Source: Escherichia phage vB_EcoM_VR25. From it: 64,000 nucleotides of DNA. How positions within the stretch are numbered: position 1 is the stretch's first letter; every line of letters starts with the position of its first letter. Below are positions 539 to 54,067 of the stretch, piece after piece. The stretch lies in the sequence record NC_028925.1, one strand, 5' to 3'. The position numbers and the translations under genes are program-made. The notes under the pieces are model-generated. The model was given only the letters and a program-made list of their open reading frames with translations. It ran no database searches and had not been told where the DNA came from.

Positions 539-2518
539 ATGGCTTTATTATCCCCGGGCATTGAGCTCAAAGAAACAACGGTCCAAAGCACTGTTGTTCG
601 TAACGCGACGGGTCGTGCGGCGCTGGTTGGTAAATTCCAGTGGGGCCCAGCTTTCCAGGTAACTCAGATTACAAACGAAGTGGAACTTGTTGATTTGTTT
701 GGTGGCCCGAACAATATCACAGCTGACTACTTTATGAGTGGAATGAACTTCCTTCAATATGGTAATGACCTGCGCACAGTTCGTGTAGTTAACCGCGACC
801 ACGCTAAAAACGCATCCCCGGTAGCAGGGAACATCGAAAGTACAATCGCTACTGCAGGTTCTAACTATGCAGTCGGTGACGTTATCCAGGTTAAACACAA
901 CCAGACTGTTGTTGAAACTTCTGGCCGTATTACCAAGGTTGACGTTGACGGGAAAATCCTCGCGGTCTTCATTCCGTCTGACAAAATTATTGCCTTTGCA
1001 AAATCTGTAAACCAGTATCCGGACCTTGGTCCAGCATGGACTGCTGAAATCCTGACCACTTCTTCAGGTGTGTCTGGTACGATTACCCTTGGGAAAATTG
1101 TCACCGATTCTGGTATCCTGTTGACCGAAGCAGAAAATAGCGAAGAAGCTATTACCTCTTTGGAATTCCAGGCTTCCCTGCAGAAATATGCAATGCCAGG
1201 TGTTGTTGCTCTTTATCCTGGTGAAATCGGTTCGACTCTCGAAGTTGAAATCGTTTCCAAAGCTGCATATGATGTTGGCGCTTCGAAGATGCTTGACATT
1301 TATCCGAATGGTGGTTCCCGTGCTTCTGTTGCTCGTGCGGTGTTTAACTATGGTCCGCAGACTGACGACCAGTATGCAATCATCGTTCGTCGTGATGGCG
1401 CTATCGTTGAAAACGTTGTTCTGTCAACCAAAGAAGGCGATAAAGACGTTTACGGCAACAACATTTATCTGGACGACTACTTTGCAAAAGGTACTTCCAA
1501 TTACATCTATGCAACTTCTCTGAACTGGCCAAAAGGCTTTGCAGGCATCATCAATCTGATGGGTGGTATTTCTGCAAACGACCAGGTTACTGCTGGTGAT
1601 TTGATGCAAGGTTGGGACCTGTTTGCTGACCGTGAAGCACTGCATATTAACCTGCTTATCGCTGGTGCAGTAGCTGGTGAAGGTGATGCAACCGCTTCAA
1701 CTGTTCAGAAGCACGTGGTTTCTATCGCTGACGAACGTCAGGATTGCCTGGCATTTATCTCTCCACCAAAAGGCCTTCTGGTTAACGTTCCTCTGACCCG
1801 TGCAGTGGATAACCTGATTGACTGGCGTACAGGTGGCGGCTCATTCGATACTGATAACATGAATATCAGCACGACTTATGCAGCGATTGATGGCAACTAT
1901 AAATATCAGTATGATAAATATAACGACGTTAACCGTTGGGTTCCTCTGGCAGCTGATATGGCTGGTCTGTGTGCTCGTACTGATGATGTTTCTCAGCCTT
2001 GGATGTCTCCGGCCGGTTATAACCGTGGTCAGATTCTGAACGTACTGAAATTGGCTATCGAACCTCGTCAGACCCAACGTGACCGCATGTATCAAGAAGC
2101 TATCAACCCGGTTGTTGGTTTCGCAGGTGGTGATGGTTTTGTTCTTTACGGTGATAAGACTGCAACTAAAGTTCCATCTCCGATGGACCATATCAACGTT
2201 CGTCGTCTTACGAATATGCTGAAGAAAAATATCGGTGACGCATCCAAATATAAACTGTTTGAGCTTAACGATAACTTCACTCGTGCATCATTCCGTATGG
2301 AAACTTCTCAATACTTGGATGGTATTCGTGCGCTCGGTGGCATTTATGAAGGTCGTGTGGTTTGTGATACTACCAACAACACCCCGTCGGTCATAGACCG
2401 AAATGAGTTTGTTGCTAGCATTTATTTTAAACCTGCGCGCAGCATCAACTACATCACACTTAATTTCGTAGCCACAAGCACTGGTGCTGATTTTGATGAG
2501 CTGATTGGGCCGCAATAA
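539..2518 (+). CDS. 18: Tail sheath protein
   Basis: 659-aa ORF; length and position match T4 gp18; follows gene 17 and a late promoter. Confidence 0.93.
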   Translation: MALLSPGIELKETTVQSTVVRNATGRAALVGKFQWGPAFQVTQITNEVELVDLFGGPNNITADYFMSGMNFLQYGNDLRTVRVVNRDHAKNASPVAGNIESTIATAGSNYAVGDVIQVKHNQTVVETSGRITKVDVDGKILAVFIPSDKIIAFAKSVNQYPDLGPAWTAEILTTSSGVSGTITLGKIVTDSGILLTEAENSEEAITSLEFQASLQKYAMPGVVALYPGEIGSTLEVEIVSKAAYDVGASKMLDIYPNGGSRASVARAVFNYGPQTDDQYAIIVRRDGAIVENVVLSTKEGDKDVYGNNIYLDDYFAKGTSNYIYATSLNWPKGFAGIINLMGGISANDQVTAGDLMQGWDLFADREALHINLLIAGAVAGEGDATASTVQKHVVSIADERQDCLAFISPPKGLLVNVPLTRAVDNLIDWRTGGGSFDTDNMNISTTYAAIDGNYKYQYDKYNDVNRWVPLAADMAGLCARTDDVSQPWMSPAGYNRGQILNVLKLAIEPRQTQRDRMYQEAINPVVGFAGGDGFVLYGDKTATKVPSPMDHINVRRLTNMLKKNIGDASKYKLFELNDNFTRASFRMETSQYLDGIRALGGIYEGRVVCDTTNNTPSVIDRNEFVASIYFKPARSINYITLNFVATSTGADFDELIGPQ

Positions 2519-2660: not shown

Positions 2661-2668
2661 TATAAATA
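2661..2668 (+). promoter_or_regulatory. Late promoter box TATAAATA upstream of gene 19
   Basis: Exact TATAAATA about 50 nt upstream of the chosen gene 19 start. Confidence 0.6.
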
Positions 2669-4844: not shown

Positions 4845-5098
4845 TGGATGATTTATTTGAAGCCATTAAATCAAACGACCTCGTAGCCGTTCGCAAATAT
4901 TTTGCTGAAAACATTGGCCCAGTATGCGGTAGTTTGATTGAAGAACGTAAGATTGAAATTGCACGTTCCATCATGATTGAAGGTGAAGAGCCTAAAGAAG
5001 ATGATGAAAACAAGGACGACAAAGCAGAAAAGAAAGACAAAAAAGAATCTGACGACGCTGACGAAGGCGACGACGATGAAGATGAGGACGATGAATAA
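4844..5098 (+). CDS. 67: Prohead core protein (acidic C-terminus)
   Basis: Small ORF with poly-D/E tail in the gene 67 slot; start overlaps gene 20 stop. Confidence 0.8.
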
Positions 5099-5526
5099 TG
5101 TTTATTATCCCTGACGATTACGAATTAACTCTTGAAAACATCGAAAGTGTTTCCGAAGAAGCTCAGGGACAATTTGATTCATTATCTGAAGCCTTAGAAA
5201 AAGACGATATAAATATTATTGTAGAAAACATGTTTGCAGCCGGTGAATATGAAAAAGCAACGGTTATCGGCGCACTGAATGAAGGTGTTCAGCTTAACGA
5301 ATTTATCGTTAAACATGTATCGTCTCGCGGTGAGTTAACCCGCACAAAAGACCGAGCTACTCGTAAGCGTAATGCTTTCCAAACAACTGGTCTTTCTAAA
5401 GCTAAACGTCGTCAAATTGCCCGACTGGCTACTAAAACGAAAAGAGCAAACCCATCTACGCAAATCAGAGCAGAGCGCAAGCGTAAAAAAGCTCGAGCTA
5501 AGCGTAAAGCATTCGGACTTGATTAA
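5098..5526 (+). CDS. 68: Prohead core protein
   Basis: 142-aa ORF in the gene 68 slot, translationally coupled (TAATG) to neighbours. Confidence 0.8.
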
Positions 5527-6164
5527 TGGAACAGAAACCAGAGTTACTAATCGAACACTGGGGTCAACCGGGCGAAATTAAAGATGGTGTACCGATGTTG
5601 GAATCTCATGATGGTTCCAGCAGCGGTTTAAAGCCAGGACTTTATATTGAAGGTATTTTCCTACAAGCTGAAGTTGTTAACCGTAATAAACGACTTTATC
5701 CTAAACGTATTTTGGAAAAAGCCGTTGCGGACTATATCGCCGAACAGGTTGAAACCAAGCAGTCTCTTGGAGAATTAAACCATCCACCTCGTGCAAACGT
5801 TGACCCTATGCAGGCAGCAATTATTATCGAGGAAATGTGGTGGAAAGGGAATGATGTATATGGCCGCGCGCGTATTATCGAAGGCGACCATGGTCCAGGT
5901 GATAAACTTGCTGCGAATATAAGAGCGGGTTGGATTCCTGGTGTATCTAGTCGTGGGCTCGGTTCCCTGACTAAATCAGCAAAAGGTTATAACATCGTCA
6001 ATGAAGGTTTTAAATTGACGGTTGGAGTAGATGCAGTATGGGGGCCAAGTGCTCCGGACGCTTGGGTCAAACCAAAGCAGATTACAGAATCACAAACGGC
6101 GGAAGCCGATACAAGTGCCGACGACGCCTTTATGGCTCTCGCAGAGGCTTTAAAGACGTTATAA
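5526..6164 (+). CDS. 21: Prohead core scaffold protein and protease
   Basis: 212-aa ORF in T4 gene 21 position between 68 and 22. Confidence 0.9.
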   Translation: MEQKPELLIEHWGQPGEIKDGVPMLESHDGSSSGLKPGLYIEGIFLQAEVVNRNKRLYPKRILEKAVADYIAEQVETKQSLGELNHPPRANVDPMQAAIIIEEMWWKGNDVYGRARIIEGDHGPGDKLAANIRAGWIPGVSSRGLGSLTKSAKGYNIVNEGFKLTVGVDAVWGPSAPDAWVKPKQITESQTAEADTSADDAFMALAEALKTL

Positions 6165-6167
6165 ATA
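6160..6167 (+). promoter_or_regulatory. Late promoter box TATAAATA upstream of gene 22
   Basis: Exact TATAAATA overlapping the gene 21 stop, about 30 nt before the gene 22 ATG. Confidence 0.55.
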
Positions 6168-6196
6168 AATGTATATCTTAACAACAGGACTACAAA

Positions 6197-7015
6197 ATGC
6201 TTAAAGAACAACTCATTTCTGAAGCTCAAAACATCGATGCTTCCGTTGCTCTCGATAGTATTTTCGAATCAGTTAATTTGTCCCCGGAAGCGAAAGCTAC
6301 CTTCGGCACTGTATTCGAAGCTACCGTCAAGCAACACGCCATCAAACTGGCAGAATCTCACATTCACGCCATCGCTGAAAAAGCTGAAGAAGAAGTCGAA
6401 AAGAATAAAGAAGAATCCGACGAAAAAGCAGAGAAAAAACTGAAAGAATCTGCAGCTAAATTCCTGGACCACGTTGCTAAAGAATGGCTTGCTGAAAACA
6501 AACTGGCTGTCGACCGTGGCATTAAAGCTGACCTGTTCGAATCCATGTTTACCGGCATGAAAGAACTGTTCGTTGAGCACAACGTTGTTGTTCCAGAAGA
6601 ATCTGTTGATGTTGTTGCAGAAATGCAGGAAGAACTGGAAGAGCAAAAAGCTGAAACCGCTAGTCTGTTCGAAGAAGTTTCTAAGCGTGATGCTTATATC
6701 AATTATGTCCAGCGCGAAGTTGCGTTGACTGAAGCGACCAAAGACCTGACCGAATCTCAAAAAGAAAAAGTTGGTTCTCTGGTAGAAGGTATGGATTATT
6801 CCGATGCGTTCGGTACCAAAATTGGCGCTATCGTTGAAATGGTTAAAGGTCAGGTAGACACCGCCGAAAAACCTATCACCGAAGCAGCTATAAATAATTC
6901 TGTAGACGATGCTGCGGCACTGAATTACATCTCAGAAGCAGTTGAAGAAAAAGGCGCCAAGCCTACCCTGTCCTTCGCGGACTTGTCTGCTCTCGCAGCA
7001 TCACGAATTTCTTAA
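6197..7015 (+). CDS. 22: Prohead core scaffold protein
   Basis: 272-aa acidic, coiled-coil-like ORF in the gene 22 slot. Confidence 0.9.
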   Translation: MLKEQLISEAQNIDASVALDSIFESVNLSPEAKATFGTVFEATVKQHAIKLAESHIHAIAEKAEEEVEKNKEESDEKAEKKLKESAAKFLDHVAKEWLAENKLAVDRGIKADLFESMFTGMKELFVEHNVVVPEESVDVVAEMQEELEEQKAETASLFEEVSKRDAYINYVQREVALTEATKDLTESQKEKVGSLVEGMDYSDAFGTKIGAIVEMVKGQVDTAEKPITEAAINNSVDDAAALNYISEAVEEKGAKPTLSFADLSALAASRIS

Positions 7016-7036
7016 TTTAATAAGGTTATACAACAC

Positions 7037-8596
7037 ATGAAAAAGAATGCATTAGTTCAAAAATGGTCCGCTCTGCTGGAAAACGAAGCTCTTCCTGAAA
7101 TCGTTGGTGCTTCTAAACAAGCTATCATCGCTAAAATCTTTGAAAACCAGGAACAAGATATCCTGACCGCTCCTGAATACCGTGACGAAAAAATCTCCGA
7201 AGCATTTGGTTCTTTCCTGACTGAAGCTGAAATCGGTGGTGACCATGGTTATGATGCTACCAATATCGCGGCTGGCCAGACCTCTGGTGCAGTAACTCAG
7301 ATTGGGCCGGCAGTTATGGGTATGGTTCGTCGTGCTATCCCGCATCTGATTGCGTTTGATATTTGTGGCGTGCAGCCTCTGAACAACCCGACTGGCCAGG
7401 TATTTGCCCTGCGTGCAGTTTACGGTAAAGACCCTGTAGCTGCTGGTGCTAAAGAAGCTTTCCACCCGATGTATGCTCCGAACGCTATGTTCTCTGGTCA
7501 GGGCGCTGCTGAAGCTTTCGAAGCTCTGGCTGCAAGCAAAGTTCTTACCGTTGGTAAAATTTATTCTCACTTCTTCGAAGCAACCGGTTCCGCACACTAC
7601 CAGGCTGTTGAAGCTGTAACCGTTGATGCTGGCGCTACTGATGCTGCTAAACTTGACGCTGAAGTTACCAAACTGCTCGAAGCTGGTAAACTGGCAGAAA
7701 TTGCTGAAGGTATGGCTACCTCTATCGCCGAACTGCAGGAAGGTTTCAACGGTTCTCAGGATAACCCGTGGAACGAAATGGGCTTCCGCATCGATAAACA
7801 AGTTATCGAAGCTAAATCCCGTCAGCTGAAAGCAAGCTACTCTATCGAACTGGCACAGGACCTGCGCGCTGTTCACGGTATGGACGCTGATGCTGAATTG
7901 AGTGGTATTCTGGCTACTGAAATTATGCTGGAAATCAACCGCGAAGTTATCGATTGGATTAACTACTCCGCACAGGTTGGTAAATCTGGTATGACCAACA
8001 CCGTTGGCGCTAAAGCTGGTGTGTTTGACTTCCAGGACCCAATTGATATCCGTGGCGCTCGTTGGGCTGGTGAAAGCTTCAAAGCTTTACTGTTCCAGAT
8101 TGATAAAGAAGCCGCTGAAATCGCTCGTCAGACCGGTCGTGGTGCAGGTAACTTCATCATCGCTTCCCGTAACGTAGTTAACGTACTGGCTGCAGTTGAT
8201 ACCTCCGTATCTTATGCTGCTCAGGGTCTGGGTAAAGGTTTCAACGTTGACACCACTAAAGCTGTGTTCGCTGGTGTTCTGGGTGGCAAATACCGTGTCT
8301 ATATCGACCAGTATGCTCGCGCAGATTACTTCACCATCGGTTACAAAGGCGCTAACGAAATGGATGCTGGTATCTACTACGCACCATATGTTGCACTGAC
8401 CCCGCTGCGTGGCTCTGACCCGAAAAACTTCCAGCCGGTTATGGGCTTCAAAACCCGTTACGGTATCGGTATTAACCCGTTCGCTGACCCGGCAGCTCAG
8501 GCTCCGACCAAGCGTATTCAAAACGGCATGCCGGACATTGTTAACAGCCTCGGCTTGAACGGTTACTTTAGACGTGTATATGTAAAAGGTATCTAA
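7037..8596 (+). CDS. 23: Major capsid protein
   Basis: 519-aa ORF; paralogous to the downstream gp24 ORFs (shared SRKLK..S..ELAQDL and YYAPY motifs); T4 order. Confidence 0.95.
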   Translation: MKKNALVQKWSALLENEALPEIVGASKQAIIAKIFENQEQDILTAPEYRDEKISEAFGSFLTEAEIGGDHGYDATNIAAGQTSGAVTQIGPAVMGMVRRAIPHLIAFDICGVQPLNNPTGQVFALRAVYGKDPVAAGAKEAFHPMYAPNAMFSGQGAAEAFEALAASKVLTVGKIYSHFFEATGSAHYQAVEAVTVDAGATDAAKLDAEVTKLLEAGKLAEIAEGMATSIAELQEGFNGSQDNPWNEMGFRIDKQVIEAKSRQLKASYSIELAQDLRAVHGMDADAELSGILATEIMLEINREVIDWINYSAQVGKSGMTNTVGAKAGVFDFQDPIDIRGARWAGESFKALLFQIDKEAAEIARQTGRGAGNFIIASRNVVNVLAAVDTSVSYAAQGLGKGFNVDTTKAVFAGVLGGKYRVYIDQYARADYFTIGYKGANEMDAGIYYAPYVALTPLRGSDPKNFQPVMGFKTRYGIGINPFADPAAQAPTKRIQNGMPDIVNSLGLNGYFRRVYVKGI

Positions 8597-8614
8597 GCCT
8601 TAAAAATTAAAAAA

Positions 8615-8637
8615 GGGACCTTCGGGTCCCTTTCTTG
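8615..8637 (+). terminator. Rho-independent terminator after gene 23
   Basis: GGGACC-TTCG-GGTCCC stem followed by T-rich tract. Confidence 0.7.
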
Positions 8638-8640
8638 TTT

Positions 8641-8934
8641 TCATACCATACCATTTAAATGAACTTCTACCCGGCGCTTGATGAGGTCTCTGAAATTAAC
8701 ACTGTTCTCTTGAAGTTTCAACCAGTTACCTGATTTGTCTTTGGTGTGAGTAGAATAATTACCATTCCACCAAAAATCAGTATCATATGCTAAGTTTTCA
8801 TATTTTTTAACTAGTTTGTTCAGAGCATTACCATTAACACCATTTGGGTATTTGTTGACCAATGCAACAACTTCAATTTCCAGATTTTTAAAGGTATTCC
8901 GAAGGAAAGATACTTTGTTCATTTTAGACTCCAT
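8641..8934 (-). CDS. Hypothetical protein (97 aa), opposite strand between genes 23 and 24
   Basis: ORF with GGAG 6 nt upstream of ATG and an early-type promoter upstream; no recognisable domain. Confidence 0.55.
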   Translation of the reverse strand: MESKMNKVSFLRNTFKNLEIEVVALVNKYPNGVNGNALNKLVKKYENLAYDTDFWWNGNYSTHTKDKSGNWLKLQENSVNFRDLIKRRVEVHLNGMV

Positions 8935-8958
8935 TGTTTGGTAACTCAGTATGAAATC

Positions 8959-8988
8959 ATTATGTCTTATCTTAATCGGGTTGTAAAC
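8959..8988 (-). promoter_or_regulatory. Early-type promoter (TTTACA-17 nt-CATAAT) on minus strand
   Basis: -35 TTTACA and -10 CATAAT with 17-nt spacer; near-identical copy at 34682-34711. Confidence 0.45.
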
Positions 8989-8994
8989 AACTTT

Positions 8995-9002
8995 TATAAA
9001 TA
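8995..9002 (+). promoter_or_regulatory. Late promoter box TATAAATA upstream of gene 24
   Basis: Exact TATAAATA 25 nt upstream of the gene 24 ATG. Confidence 0.6.
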
Positions 9003-9027
9003 AAGTATATCACAAAAGGAAAGCGCA

Positions 9028-10308
9028 ATGGCAAAGATTAACGAACTGCTGCGCGAGTCAACTACCACTACCAGCAACTCCTTGGGCCGCCCGAATCTTG
9101 TTGCTTTGACCCGTGCTACAACCAAATTGATTTACCGCGATATTATCGCTGAACAACGTACTAACCAGCCAGTTGCGGCTCTGTACGGTGTTAAATATCT
9201 TACTCCTGATAATGAATTCAGTTTCCAGACTGGTGCTACTTATGGTGGTGAAGTCGGTTCTAAAGACCGTACAACTATTCCAGAATTAGCTACAGCTACT
9301 CAGCCTGTTGCTAAAGGCGAATATGTAAAATATCAAAATATCGTTTACAAAGCTCTGGTGGATAATCCATTTGCAACAACCACAGAAACAGTATTATCTG
9401 ATGTTCTACAGGAAGGTCTTATTGCATCGACTATTCGTTTAGTTCCTGATGCAGCGCATACCGAGAAATTTGAAGCCGGTGATGTTGAAATTAGTAACGC
9501 CGTGTTCCAGGTTAATAAATGGAATGCTCCTGTTAAATCCCGTAAATTGAAAACTGCACTGACTGTTGAACTTGCTCAGGATATGGAAGCAAACGGTTTT
9601 AATGCTCCTGCTTTCCTGGAAGACCTGCTTGCAACTACCATGGCAGACGAAATTAACAAAGATGTTCTGCAGTCTCTGATTACCGTTTCCAAGCGTTATA
9701 AAGTCACTGGCGTTTCTGATAAAGGTTTCATCGATTTGACATATGATTCAGCTCCAGAAGGCGCACGTAAACTATACGAACTGGTTTGCGAAATGAACTC
9801 TGAAATTCAGAAAACTACATCTTACTCTGGTACATTCGTTGTTGCCTCAAGTCGTGTGGCCGCGATGCTCGCCGGTTCCGGTTGGTTGAAACATAAACCT
9901 GAAGATGAACAATGGCTCCCGGAAACCGCGTACGGCTATTTGATTAATGGTCTTCCTGTATTCTGTGATGTTAACAGTCCATTGGATTATGTAACCGTTG
10001 GCGTTAAAGAAAATTACGGTGGAAACGAAGTCGTAGGCTCAATCTTCTATGCTCCTTATACCGAAGGCCTGGACTTAGATGATGAAGAACATGTAGGTGC
10101 GTTTAAGGTCATTGTGGACCCAGACAGCTTGCAGCCATCTATCTCCTTGATGGTTCGATATGCACTTTCAGCTAACCCTTACACCGTTGCTAAAGACGAC
10201 AAAGAAGCTCGTATTATCGATGCAACTAATATGGATTTAATGGCCGGCCAGAGCAACATGTCTTATCTGCTCGGTGTTAAACTTCCACCAATCATTTATG
10301 AGGCGTAA
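9028..10308 (+). CDS. 24: Head vertex protein gp24
   Basis: 426-aa ORF; N-terminus MAKINELLRESTTT..SLGRPNLVALTRATTKLIY matches remembered T4 gp24. Confidence 0.93.
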   Translation: MAKINELLRESTTTTSNSLGRPNLVALTRATTKLIYRDIIAEQRTNQPVAALYGVKYLTPDNEFSFQTGATYGGEVGSKDRTTIPELATATQPVAKGEYVKYQNIVYKALVDNPFATTTETVLSDVLQEGLIASTIRLVPDAAHTEKFEAGDVEISNAVFQVNKWNAPVKSRKLKTALTVELAQDMEANGFNAPAFLEDLLATTMADEINKDVLQSLITVSKRYKVTGVSDKGFIDLTYDSAPEGARKLYELVCEMNSEIQKTTSYSGTFVVASSRVAAMLAGSGWLKHKPEDEQWLPETAYGYLINGLPVFCDVNSPLDYVTVGVKENYGGNEVVGSIFYAPYTEGLDLDDEEHVGAFKVIVDPDSLQPSISLMVRYALSANPYTVAKDDKEARIIDATNMDLMAGQSNMSYLLGVKLPPIIYEA

Positions 10309-11592
10309 ATGCAAAAGATTAACGCACTAATTCACGAATCAACATTAACGGCGGCCAACCAGGTCGCCCGTCCTAATTTGCTTTCTTATACTCGGGCTAC
10401 GAATAAACGAATTTTTAAAGCTCTTGTGGCCGAACAGAAAACTACTCAGCCAGTCGCAGCGCTGTATGGCGTTCGTGTTCTGAACCCAGATGATAAAATG
10501 ACTTATCTTGGTGGAGCAACATTTGCAGGCCAGATTGGTATGTTCGAGCGTAAGAATATTCCAGAATTTACGAACAAAGACGAAGCTTATGCAGTCGGCA
10601 ACATGTTCCAGTTTGAAAGCATTGTATTCAAAGCTTTGGAAGCTTCTCCTTTTGCCGGGACCCTCGAAACTGATTTGGGTGAAGTTATTTCTGAAGCCAT
10701 TGCGGCTGGCCATATAAGAATGATGTCAGATGCGGCTTTCACTGATAAATTTGAACAAGGACATCCTGAAATTGCTGAAGCCGGTTTCCGTATTGATAAA
10801 TGGCAGACTGAAGTTAAATCCAGAAAACTGAAAACCTCTTTAACCGTTGAGCTTGCGCAAGACCTGGAAGCAAATGGTTTCGACGCAACAGATTTTATTG
10901 ATAATATCCTTGGTATTCAAATGGCAGAGGAAATTAATAAGGACGTACTGCAATCTTTAATTACCGTGAGTTCGCGTTTTAAAGTCCAGGGTGTTTCCGA
11001 AAAAGGTGTACTTAATCTTACTGATGCCGCTTATGATAATGCTCAGGACCGTGCTCGAACTCTGTATTATTATATGTGCGAAATGAATTCCGCAGTTCAA
11101 CGTCAGACTTCGTTCGCTGGTACATATGCAGTCGCTTCTTCCCGTTGTGCAGCTATTTTAGCAGCTTCTGGCTGGGTTGAGAAAAAGGAAGACCAAGATG
11201 AATTGGCCTATGGTGTTCTGAAGAACGGTTTGCCACTTTATGCAGATATGAATAGCCCGTGCGATTATGTTATTGTTGGTGTAAATGCTGATATGGGTGA
11301 AGGTCAGACAGTCGCATCTTTGTATTATGCGCCTTATACGGAAGGTCTTAGTGAAGTTGATGATGAGGGTGACACCTCGGTTGGGGAATTCAAGGTTATC
11401 GTTGACCCCGAAAGTTTACAGCCTACAGTTGCACTGTTAGCTCGTTATGCACTGACTGCAAACCCTTACACCGTTGCTAAAGACGATAAAGAAGCTCGCA
11501 TTATTGATGGAGCTGATATGGATAAGATGGCTAACCAAAGCCAATTGAGTTCTTATCTTGGTGTTAAACTTCCACCACTGGAAAAAGAATAA
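10309..11592 (+). CDS. Second, diverged gp24-like head vertex protein (tandem paralog)
   Basis: 427-aa ORF starting on the TAAATG junction; clearly homologous along full length to upstream gp24 (MQKINALIHESTLT..., shared C-terminal ANPYTVAKDDKEARIID). Confidence 0.88.
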   Translation: MQKINALIHESTLTAANQVARPNLLSYTRATNKRIFKALVAEQKTTQPVAALYGVRVLNPDDKMTYLGGATFAGQIGMFERKNIPEFTNKDEAYAVGNMFQFESIVFKALEASPFAGTLETDLGEVISEAIAAGHIRMMSDAAFTDKFEQGHPEIAEAGFRIDKWQTEVKSRKLKTSLTVELAQDLEANGFDATDFIDNILGIQMAEEINKDVLQSLITVSSRFKVQGVSEKGVLNLTDAAYDNAQDRARTLYYYMCEMNSAVQRQTSFAGTYAVASSRCAAILAASGWVEKKEDQDELAYGVLKNGLPLYADMNSPCDYVIVGVNADMGEGQTVASLYYAPYTEGLSEVDDEGDTSVGEFKVIVDPESLQPTVALLARYALTANPYTVAKDDKEARIIDGADMDKMANQSQLSSYLGVKLPPLEKE

Positions 11593-20654: not shown

Positions 20655-21278
20655 TTACATAAACTTAAAGAATTCTTTAAGCCCCTTAATTACATGGACA
20701 GAATGCGCTCCACACTCACAAGAGATAGGAATAGCCATTTGGACCTGTGGCTTGAGAAGTTCTTCCGTTAGTGCATTGATATCATCGAGGGTAATTGCAT
20801 TGTACAGGTCCTCGATTTCGGCCTCATTTAAGTCATCAACAACGATGCGCTCGCCGCCTTCCGTGATAATATATTCAATGCAACAAGCAATCATTTTTCC
20901 TTTATCACCGTCTTCAAACAGCCCAGGATAACGGAATTTGATTTTAAACGACCCGAAATCACGAATAACTTCAGACTCGTCCACGATGCTCGCACGGCTA
21001 ATCGTTACCGGAATATCTTGTTCCTTTCCACACTCACATACCCATGTATGCTCGACGTTGACAGCTCCGAGACTATTTGCCCAGAGATTAATAAGAAGCA
21101 GTTCAGCTTCCTGTTTGTTTAACCCTTTAGCATCAGTGCATTTATTAAGCAGTTCAATTATTGCAGGTTCCATACGCTTTTCTAATTTTGCCTGAAGCAA
21201 ATCTTTATATTCGCGCAAGGTAAAAGCCCTACAATTTATAGTTTTATTTTTAATTTGGACAATAAATTCATAAGTCAT
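20655..21278 (-). CDS. 26: Baseplate hub subunit gp26
   Basis: Start at internal ATG 21278 preceded by AAGGAG; position between 25 and 51. Confidence 0.8.
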   Translation of the reverse strand: MTYEFIVQIKNKTINCRAFTLREYKDLLQAKLEKRMEPAIIELLNKCTDAKGLNKQEAELLLINLWANSLGAVNVEHTWVCECGKEQDIPVTISRASIVDESEVIRDFGSFKIKFRYPGLFEDGDKGKMIACCIEYIITEGGERIVVDDLNEAEIEDLYNAITLDDINALTEELLKPQVQMAIPISCECGAHSVHVIKGLKEFFKFM

Positions 21279-21295: not shown

Positions 21296-21307
21296 TATTT
21301 ATAAATA
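21296..21307. promoter_or_regulatory. Overlapping divergent late promoters (palindrome TATTTATAAATA) for gene 26 (minus) and gene 51 (plus)
   Basis: TATAAATA read on both strands at 21296-21303 (minus) and 21300-21307 (plus). Confidence 0.5.
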
Positions 21308-21331: not shown

Positions 21332-22084
21332 ATGGCCAATATCGTAAGATGTGAAATGCCAGACGGAGTTCATCGTTTCAAACCGTTTACAGTCGCTGAT
21401 TACCGTGATTTACTGCTTGTGCGAAACGACATGAACAACAAACCCGTCGAAGAACAAAAACAATTATTAGACGAACTGTTAGAAGATTATTTTGGAGAGT
21501 ATCCGAAAGCATGGAGACCTTACATATTCTTGAAGGTATTCACTTCCTCTATCGGCAAGACAAAAGTCCCGGTAGCGTTCGAATGTCAAAAATGTAAAAA
21601 GACAAAGCAGACTTTGTTTAACATGAGTCAAGGCCCATTGATAAATCCAACGATGGAAACCGCAGGGATAAAAATACAATTTAAGTTCCCTGAAATGGAA
21701 TATAAAGATAAGTCGGAGCTTGTTCTAAACACCATCCAGACTGTCGAAGACTCAGAACAAAAGTACAATTGGGAAGACCTTCCTGAAGAAACGAAGATGC
21801 AGGTTATTGATGCCATTGATATAGAGAGTCTCGAAGAGCTCCTTAAGAAAATGCACTCGATTTATCTTCCATTTACATATGGTTGTTGCGAAAAGCACAA
21901 AACCGAATACACTGACCTGCTTGATGTCTTTAAGCTCATCCTTAACCCGGATGAAGTCTTTATATTTTACCAAATTAACCACTTGCTGGTAAAGAATCAA
22001 TATTCGCTGGATAGCATCATGCACATGATTCCTATCGAACGAGGTATCGCTTTATCGTTAGTTGAGAAGGACTTGAAGAAATGA
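21332..22084 (+). CDS. 51: Baseplate hub assembly catalyst gp51
   Basis: 250-aa ORF in the T4 gene 51 slot, divergent from 26. Confidence 0.85.
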
Positions 22085-39080: not shown

Positions 39081-39088
39081 TATAAATA
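39081..39088 (+). promoter_or_regulatory. Late promoter box TATAAATA upstream of the HNH endonuclease gene
   Basis: Exact TATAAATA 27 nt upstream of the ATG at 39115. Confidence 0.55.
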
Positions 39089-39114: not shown

Positions 39115-40954
<1,840 letters not shown>

Positions 40955-52858: not shown

Positions 52859-53527
52859 TCAGAGTGATTGAAGCGTTATTTGACAGTTTTTAACCGTCTC
52901 AATGAAAAGCTTACGAGCTTCAAGAGCATCTATATTTAAGATTTTCTTATAAGCATTTAGTTTGGTTGAATACTTGTCCCAAACCAAATCGTTAGTCTGT
53001 TCATCATGTTTATTTATTATATGCAAAAATGAGTCAAGCAAACAAAACGTTTCAAATGAGATAACATTCGATTGGAGAAGTTTGAAAATATAACTCGTGT
53101 TCACTTTAGTATTATACTCGAAAATCTCTTGAAGCGATTTGACTTCAACTTTCTTACTAAAGTAATAGATGTTCTTTATATCATCTTCGTATACTTGTTT
53201 AATTCTTTTAAGTCTGCCGATGTATTCCCTATAAAATATCAGAGCATCGGCATCACTTATATCACCTATCCATGCATCCTGGTTCGCGACCAGGTTTGAC
53301 ATGAATATTAACGTTAATTCTTTGAGAGTATACTTATCGCTAAGCTTTTCGAAAAAATACTTATCGCGGCGTTTTTGATAAGCACTATCGGAGATTCGCA
53401 TGGTCCAGTTATATTTGATAATATCATAACGACCCGAAAAATGCTGTTTGATGGATAAGTACAGTTGATATACTGATTTACCATTTATGTATCGGTTGTT
53501 ATTTGGAGGCATGCGAATCGTAATCAT
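52859..53527 (-). CDS. 59: Helicase loader gp59
   Basis: 222-aa ORF, position. Confidence 0.88.
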   Translation of the reverse strand: MITIRMPPNNNRYINGKSVYQLYLSIKQHFSGRYDIIKYNWTMRISDSAYQKRRDKYFFEKLSDKYTLKELTLIFMSNLVANQDAWIGDISDADALIFYREYIGRLKRIKQVYEDDIKNIYYFSKKVEVKSLQEIFEYNTKVNTSYIFKLLQSNVISFETFCLLDSFLHIINKHDEQTNDLVWDKYSTKLNAYKKILNIDALEARKLFIETVKNCQITLQSL

Positions 53528-53817
53528 AACAAAAAGTCCAGCGTATTAGTTTTCTGTGTACGAGACATACTCGGACGAAGCAGGTTATCATCATATGCTT
53601 CGTTCATAATCTTATCAATGATTCCCGCGGGAATGTATCGCGCAAAATTACCCTCAGGAACGCCACGTTCTTCTAACCAGGCAGTCGTAGCTTCCAGATA
53701 AGACATTTCAGTTGACTCAACCATGGCTTCAATATCAAGCCCGTTTTGCTGCTTACTAATCGCCCCGGAAGGCGATTCAGTTTTCTGTGTATCAAAATTA
53801 ACTAAAGAGGACATCAT
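53524..53817 (-). CDS. 33: Late-promoter transcription accessory protein gp33
   Basis: C-terminus ...MSYLEATTAWLEE...NLLRPS...KTNTLDFLL matches remembered T4 gp33; start at 53817 has GGAG RBS. Confidence 0.8.
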   Translation of the reverse strand: MMSSLVNFDTQKTESPSGAISKQQNGLDIEAMVESTEMSYLEATTAWLEERGVPEGNFARYIPAGIIDKIMNEAYDDNLLRPSMSRTQKTNTLDFLL

Positions 53818-54067
53818 AGAGCTCCACAGCTTCGGTTTTTTCATCTTCAAAACGCTCACGAGTACCTTTATGATACAAGCCGAGCTGTGTATTGAACATC
53901 TTACCGTCAACACCTAATTCAGTTTTTGCCTTATCTTTAAGGTCTTTAATTTCGTCCGCGTATGCTTCCATTTTTAATTTAGTATCGGAAGCAGCTTTAA
54001 TCAGCTTGGCCAGTTCAGCACCGTGAGTATCAGGACAAAATTCAACTTTCACTTTTTTCTCTTTCAT
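53798..54067 (-). CDS. dsbA: Double-stranded DNA-binding protein
   Basis: 89-aa ORF in the dsbA slot. Confidence 0.8.
   Translation of the reverse strand: MKEKKVKVEFCPDTHGAELAKLIKAASDTKLKMEAYADEIKDLKDKAKTELGVDGKMFNTQLGLYHKGTRERFEDEKTEAVELYDVLFS

Follow-up and report, generated by a model that had tools for sequence, protein, structure and literature searches.

A predicted gene 23 late promoter within gene 22 of Escherichia phage vB_EcoM_VR25 and its counterparts in T4-like relatives

Genes 22 and 23 of Escherichia phage vB_EcoM_VR25 encode the scaffolding core and the major capsid protein of the head. The 21-nt gap between them (7016-7036) was scanned and holds no late-promoter box; an exact copy of the 8-bp box TATAAATA lies further upstream, within the coding sequence of gene 22. 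Is this embedded box a late promoter for gene 23, or an 8-mer that arose by chance in coding DNA? All coordinates below refer to the window, by which we mean the whole stretch of 64,000 nucleotides analysed from record NC_028925.1. The original prediction placed an exact box inside gene 22, about 140 nt from the gene 23 ATG, and described the short gap as free of exact boxes. Both statements hold, the distance to the ATG at 7037 being 140 nt from the box end and 148 nt from the box start. The features first needed are these:

6889..6896, + strand: late-promoter TATA box TATAAATA, assigned to -13 to -6; an exact match, orthologous to the T4 box and subjected to a codon-choice test.
6897..6902, + strand: spacer ATTCT at -5 to -1, plus the predicted start G6902 (+1), placed by the -13 to -6 rule.
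6197..7015, + strand: gene 22, head scaffolding core protein, host of the predicted promoter (272-codon ORF; PHROG E = 2e-90; VR7 annotation).
7037..8596, + strand: gene 23, major capsid protein, which the promoter would serve (PHROG major head protein, E = 7.5e-174; VR7 annotation).
6160..6167, + strand: late-promoter box P22 before gene 22, at the same position in T4 (locus L001, 1583-1590) and RB69.

Within gene 22 the box is read as gcT ATA AAT Aat, giving A-I-N-N. Over 6197-7400 the window shares 98.7% identity with Escherichia phage vB_EcoM_VR7 (Gaprivervirus, Tevenvirinae); identity to T4 is about 80% across the first half of gene 22.

A T4-type late promoter is taken here to be the 8-bp box, with T or A tolerated at -13, lying about one helical turn upstream of the start and requiring no -35 element; the placement of the box at -13 to -6 follows Nolan 2006 (PMC1524935) and Shi 2021 (PMC7892883). 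The sequence at 6889-6896 is such a box, on the + strand and upstream of the late structural gene 23. The corresponding machinery is also present, one component being encoded in the window itself:

53524..53844, - strand: homologue of gene 33, for the late-transcription co-activator (E = 2e-28 to PHROG 254, 'late promoter transcriptional regulator').

The genes for gp55 and gp45 fall outside the window and were assessed by proxy in VR7, which encodes gp55, gp45 and gp44/62. When VR7 gp55 is aligned with T4 gp55 (PDB 7D7C), residues N13, L54, R57, F86, H95, Y97 and T99 are all kept, and these seven residues form the pockets for bases -12, -9 and -8 in T4 (Shi 2021, PMC7892883). Other signals were sought around the box. 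A scan of 5000-9500 for -35/-10 hexamers at 16-18-nt spacing, with MotA boxes outside its scope, found no sigma-70-type promoter near 6889, and the 7 sigma-70 consensus sites in the scanned region compare with 6.4 expected by chance. No internal terminator was found near 6889, terminator counts being at the level of shuffled sequence.

The window contains 20 exact boxes where 4.6 are expected, a number reached in 0 of 100 shuffles. Fifteen of these fall entirely in the 11% of the DNA outside called ORFs, most of them 17-63 nt 5' of an ATG on the same strand, and the window-wide excess is due mainly to such intergenic boxes. Only three boxes lie wholly within coding sequence (1898, 5208 and 6889), against about four expected by chance. 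For the 6889 box, window counts alone are compatible with chance, and the original prediction, which held that a chance 8-mer could not be excluded, was on this evidence rightly cautious.

The two other intragenic boxes differ from each other in their relation to T4. The one at 5208-5215 (+) lies inside gene 68 (5098-5526), 318 nt before the gene 21 ATG, in the frame gaT ATA AAT Att (D-I-N-I). T4 has an orthologous box (locus L001, 634-641; D-I-N-T), 315 nt before gene 21, and on these sequences the 5208 box is probably another conserved intragenic late promoter. The TATAAATA at 1898-1905 (+), inside gene 18 (539-2518), was considered as an embedded promoter and rejected: T4 has CATAAGTA there. 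Read in the frame TAT AAA TAt (Y-K-Y), it looks like a chance occurrence and serves as a negative control.

Several further boxes and neighbouring genes in the window deserve mention in their own right. Tandem boxes at 2574-2581 and 2661-2668 (+) precede gene 19, as in T4 (locus L081, 3052 and 3111). The longest-ORF ATG for gene 19 in the window is at 2670; the gene is 492 nt long in the VR7 annotation and may therefore begin near 2721 instead. The divergent ORFs 20655-21278 (-) and 21332-22084 (+) are separated by a region in which two boxes, one on each strand, overlap at 21296-21307 (TATTTATAAATA). This arrangement suggests a back-to-back pair of late promoters, and Nolan et al. (PMC1524935) list comparable +/- pairs for RB69 and RB49. 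The box at 39081-39088 (+) is 26 nt before the ATG of an ORF at 39115-39840 (+), set among - strand genes, whose HNH-like motif SHHVVPQCLGG...EEHYLAH makes it look like a late-expressed gene of the homing-endonuclease type. Downstream of gene 23 are tandem paralogues of gene 24 (capsid vertex protein) at 9028-10308 and 10309-11592 (+), which encode 426 and 427 aa and appear in the VR7 annotation as 24(1) and 24(2); T4 has a single gene 24.

The gene 22 box has a direct counterpart in T4. In NC_000866 an exact box occupies 104803-104810, inside gene 22 (104117-104926). It lies 142 nt from the ATG of gene 23 and is read as agT ATA AAT Act (S-I-N-T); no other exact box occurs between gene 23 and the promoter box of gene 22. 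No promoter features are annotated in the T4 GenBank records, and the link of this site to the promoter P23 rests on a published oligonucleotide sequence together with reviews. Shi et al. 2021 (PMC7892883) used DNA carrying the T4 late promoter P23 for transcription and cryo-EM, and the 64-nt non-template strand of the EMSA oligonucleotide with which they assayed promoter binding by gp55 matches T4 104772-104835 at 60 of 64 positions. That span is within gene 22 and centred on the box, and the four mismatches are accounted for by a GAGCTC stretch in place of native T4 bases. Geiduschek and Kassavetis 2010 (PMC2988020) in turn name 'the consensus gene 23 promoter'. RB69 has its box at 107497-107504, likewise inside gene 22 and 144 nt ahead of the ATG of gene 23; it falls within Pl:107472, one of the late promoters predicted by Nolan et al. 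2006 (PMC1524935, Additional File 5).

The VR25 site shares with T4 P23 an identical 8-bp box, the same gene 22 frame (xxT ATA AAT Axx), a nearly equal distance to the gene 23 ATG (148 nt here, 142 nt in T4), the T(-1)/G(+1) context, the neighbouring genes and the terminator that follows them. It differs in its flanks, which are identical at 30 of 64 positions over the span of the P23 oligonucleotide, and in the residues around the dipeptide (A-I-N-N here, S-I-N-T in T4). RB69 Pl:107472 is orthologous in position and frame and, like the VR25 site, is a computational prediction. The intergenic late promoters of the window (6160, 8995, 17656, 55078 and 60184 among them) carry an identical box, oriented towards the late genes that follow; unlike the 6889 box, which is embedded in a coding region and would give a 135-nt leader, they lie in non-coding DNA 17-63 nt before an ATG. 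The segment at -5 to -1 (ATTCT) is less A+T-rich than that of most intergenic boxes in the window and richer than that of T4 P23 (CTCCT). Judged by sequence, position and frame, the 6889 box is the counterpart of T4 P23, a real element and already known biology.

To place the box in a wider set of phages, a gp23-based scan of viral contigs gave 75 loci; the counts that follow are on distinct sequences, with gp23 identity from 100% to 51%. Loci were divided into those with a short gap between genes 22 and 23 (12-25 nt) and those with a long one (78-115 nt). The core TAAATA lies inside gene 22, 123-161 nt before the gene 23 ATG, in 43/43 distinct short-gap loci. In most of these the complete 8-mer reads TATAAATA; variants with A or C at -13 also occur, as do ATTAAATA and GCTAAATA. 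The five distinct long-gap loci all have a box in the gap itself, 49-62 nt before the ATG, and in one of them (L027) gp22 has no Ile-Asn dipeptide. Every genome sampled thus keeps a box about 50-160 nt from gene 23, and by this comparison its location tracks the space available. It is the comparative evidence from relatives that removes the doubt about chance, and the internal gene 23 promoter originally proposed for the 3' end of gene 22 now has behind it the T4 orthologue, the RB69 prediction and all 43 short-gap relatives.

The short gap is itself highly conserved among relatives. In VR25 its sequence is TTTAATAAGGTTATACAACAC, and it is near-invariant though the C-termini of the relatives' gene 22 products have diverged widely, which suggests that initiation of gene 23 translation keeps this sequence under constraint.

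When gene 22 is aligned by codon with MAFFT, the box 8-mer ranks only 64th of 809 in conservation; strongly conserved protein motifs dominate, and distant sequences are misaligned. In place of this global rank we used a synonymous-codon test anchored on the box, with 30 distinct genes 22 as the sample. Isoleucine in the box is encoded by ATA in 27 of 27 sequences; the other three of the 30 have leucine, as TTA or CTA, the only leucine codons that keep TAAATA. Of the 1441 other isoleucine codons in genes 22 and 23, 2 are ATA (0 of 1048 in gene 23), and each of the 29 remaining conserved isoleucine columns mixes ATT and ATC, which shows turnover at synonymous positions among these sequences. The asparagine of the box is AAT in 30/30, and the remaining conserved asparagine columns of gene 22 are mixed. 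The codon after it always begins with A, whether the amino acid is Thr, Asn, Lys or Ile. The residue before the isoleucine varies (A/S/G/D/V/E/T), the third position of its codon being mostly T.

Conservation extends beyond the box. Among 29 distinct orthologous sites anchored on the box, G(+1) is found in all 29 and T(-1) in 27, even though -1 is the third position of codons for seven different amino acids. The conservation profile is variable at -13 and fixed from -12 to -6, matching the published information profile of late promoters (Nolan 2006; Geiduschek and Kassavetis). Position in gene 22 and reading frame are thus kept beyond what the protein sequence needs.

How else might these observations be read? 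Were the box a functionless chance 8-mer in moderately AT-rich coding DNA, gene 23 would be expressed solely by read-through from promoters before genes 22 and 21. The number of fully intragenic boxes, close to the shuffle prediction for coding DNA, is in keeping with this, as is the 1898 box in gene 18, unconserved in T4. Such a reading does not account for the retention of TAAATA in every short-gap relative and its shift into the gap in every long-gap one, for a site held on the rarest isoleucine codon while 29 control columns turned over, or for the use of DNA from the T4 orthologue in the promoter-binding assay of a P23-based study (Shi 2021, PMC7892883). On the comparative data it is refuted, and we give it practically no credence. 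The conservation might also reflect a need of the gp22 protein or of its translation. Ile-Asn could be a motif adjoining a cleavage site for the gp21 protease ([I/L/V]-x-E), and the dipeptide, with isoleucine or leucine first, is indeed conserved 1-3 residues after a conserved motif of that form; or ATA and CTA, which are rare codons in E. coli, could make ribosomes pause near the end of gene 22. Part of the Ile-Asn conservation could be at the protein level. A protein requirement leaves unexplained, however, the invariant synonymous choice of ATA and AAT, the invariant A of a next codon that specifies four amino acids, and the mostly-T third position of the preceding codon under seven amino acids, together with T(-1)/G(+1); a rare-codon pause leaves unexplained the preference for AAT over AAC. 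In L027, moreover, the box has moved to the gap and the dipeptide has been lost, so the dipeptide is dispensable for gp22. As the whole explanation, a protein or translation requirement is therefore very improbable.

A different possibility grants that the site is a genuine gp55-type promoter and makes it a minor one, most gene 23 mRNA arising by read-through from one box before gene 22 (6160) and another within gene 68 (5208). Those upstream boxes exist, no terminator-like hairpin with a good T tract lies between genes 21, 22 and 23, and Geiduschek and Kassavetis (PMC2988020) describe the relative rates of late promoters in vivo as undetermined. The strong purifying selection on the embedded box throughout the group argues instead for a substantial contribution, and the T4 orthologue was active enough to be chosen for in vitro transcription and structural work. 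We regard a merely minor role as unlikely. We prefer to read the 6889 box as a late promoter for gene 23 that corresponds to T4 P23 and depends on gp55, gp33 and gp45; the evidence as a whole makes this very probable.

Under this preferred reading the initiation of gene 23 transcription would proceed as follows. At late times the host core RNA polymerase, with the sigma-like gp55 bound, would recognise TATAAATA at -13 to -6, a recognition for which a -35 element would be unnecessary. Promoter opening would be stimulated by the co-activator gp33 together with gp45, the sliding clamp loaded on DNA, and late transcription would in this way be coupled to DNA replication. The start is predicted at about G6902, a position derived from sequence that agrees with the 5' end originally expected near 6905. 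We infer this start site, the gp55 dependence in VR25 and the promoter's share of gene 23 mRNA from the comparisons above. Two further features describe the predicted message:

6902..7036, + strand: predicted 135-nt 5' leader of the gene 23 mRNA, which follows from the predicted start.
8609..8636, no strand assigned: GC-rich hairpin after gene 23 with T runs on both strands, the probable end of the P23 transcript.

The transcript would begin with a leader made up of the final 114 nt of gene 22 plus the 21-nt gap, in which the ribosome-binding site AAGG lies, and would continue through gene 23 to the hairpin, giving a monocistronic capsid mRNA of about 1.7 kb. Each of the six genomes compared by Nolan 2006 (PMC1524935) has a predicted terminator following gene 23, and the hairpin in VR25 is probably where the P23 transcript ends. 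No regulatory RNA fold was found in the predicted leader region 6902-7066 (z = -0.74; no covarying pairs in 12 relatives). The P23 message would add to the longer read-through from the upstream boxes at 6160 and 5208, and output of gene 23 would exceed that of gene 22.

A promoter placed within coding sequence imposes the codons xxT-ATA-AAT-Axx, and hence a fixed Ile-Asn dipeptide, on the scaffold protein. We think it likely that the promoter's frame has been fixed across the sampled T4-like relatives (gp23 identity down to about 51%), that it dictates the Ile/Leu-Asn dipeptide, and that it explains nearly all ATA codons in genes 22 and 23. On the same view the dipeptide becomes dispensable once the promoter moves to an enlarged gap, as in L027, and the gene 68 box at 5208 represents the same frame solution.

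There is thus a high probability, judged from the sequence comparisons, that the element is real and functional. For annotation, gene 23 of VR25 has its own predicted late promoter inside gene 22, and recoding or deleting the 3' end of gene 22, as in phage engineering or codon optimisation, would cut transcription of the capsid gene. The result confirms known T4 biology in a Gaprivervirus-type relative; its mildly new angle is confined to the strength of the constraint that the promoter places on codon choice in the scaffold protein. If that constraint is as we propose, the locus would be a clean natural case of a transcription signal shaping a protein sequence.
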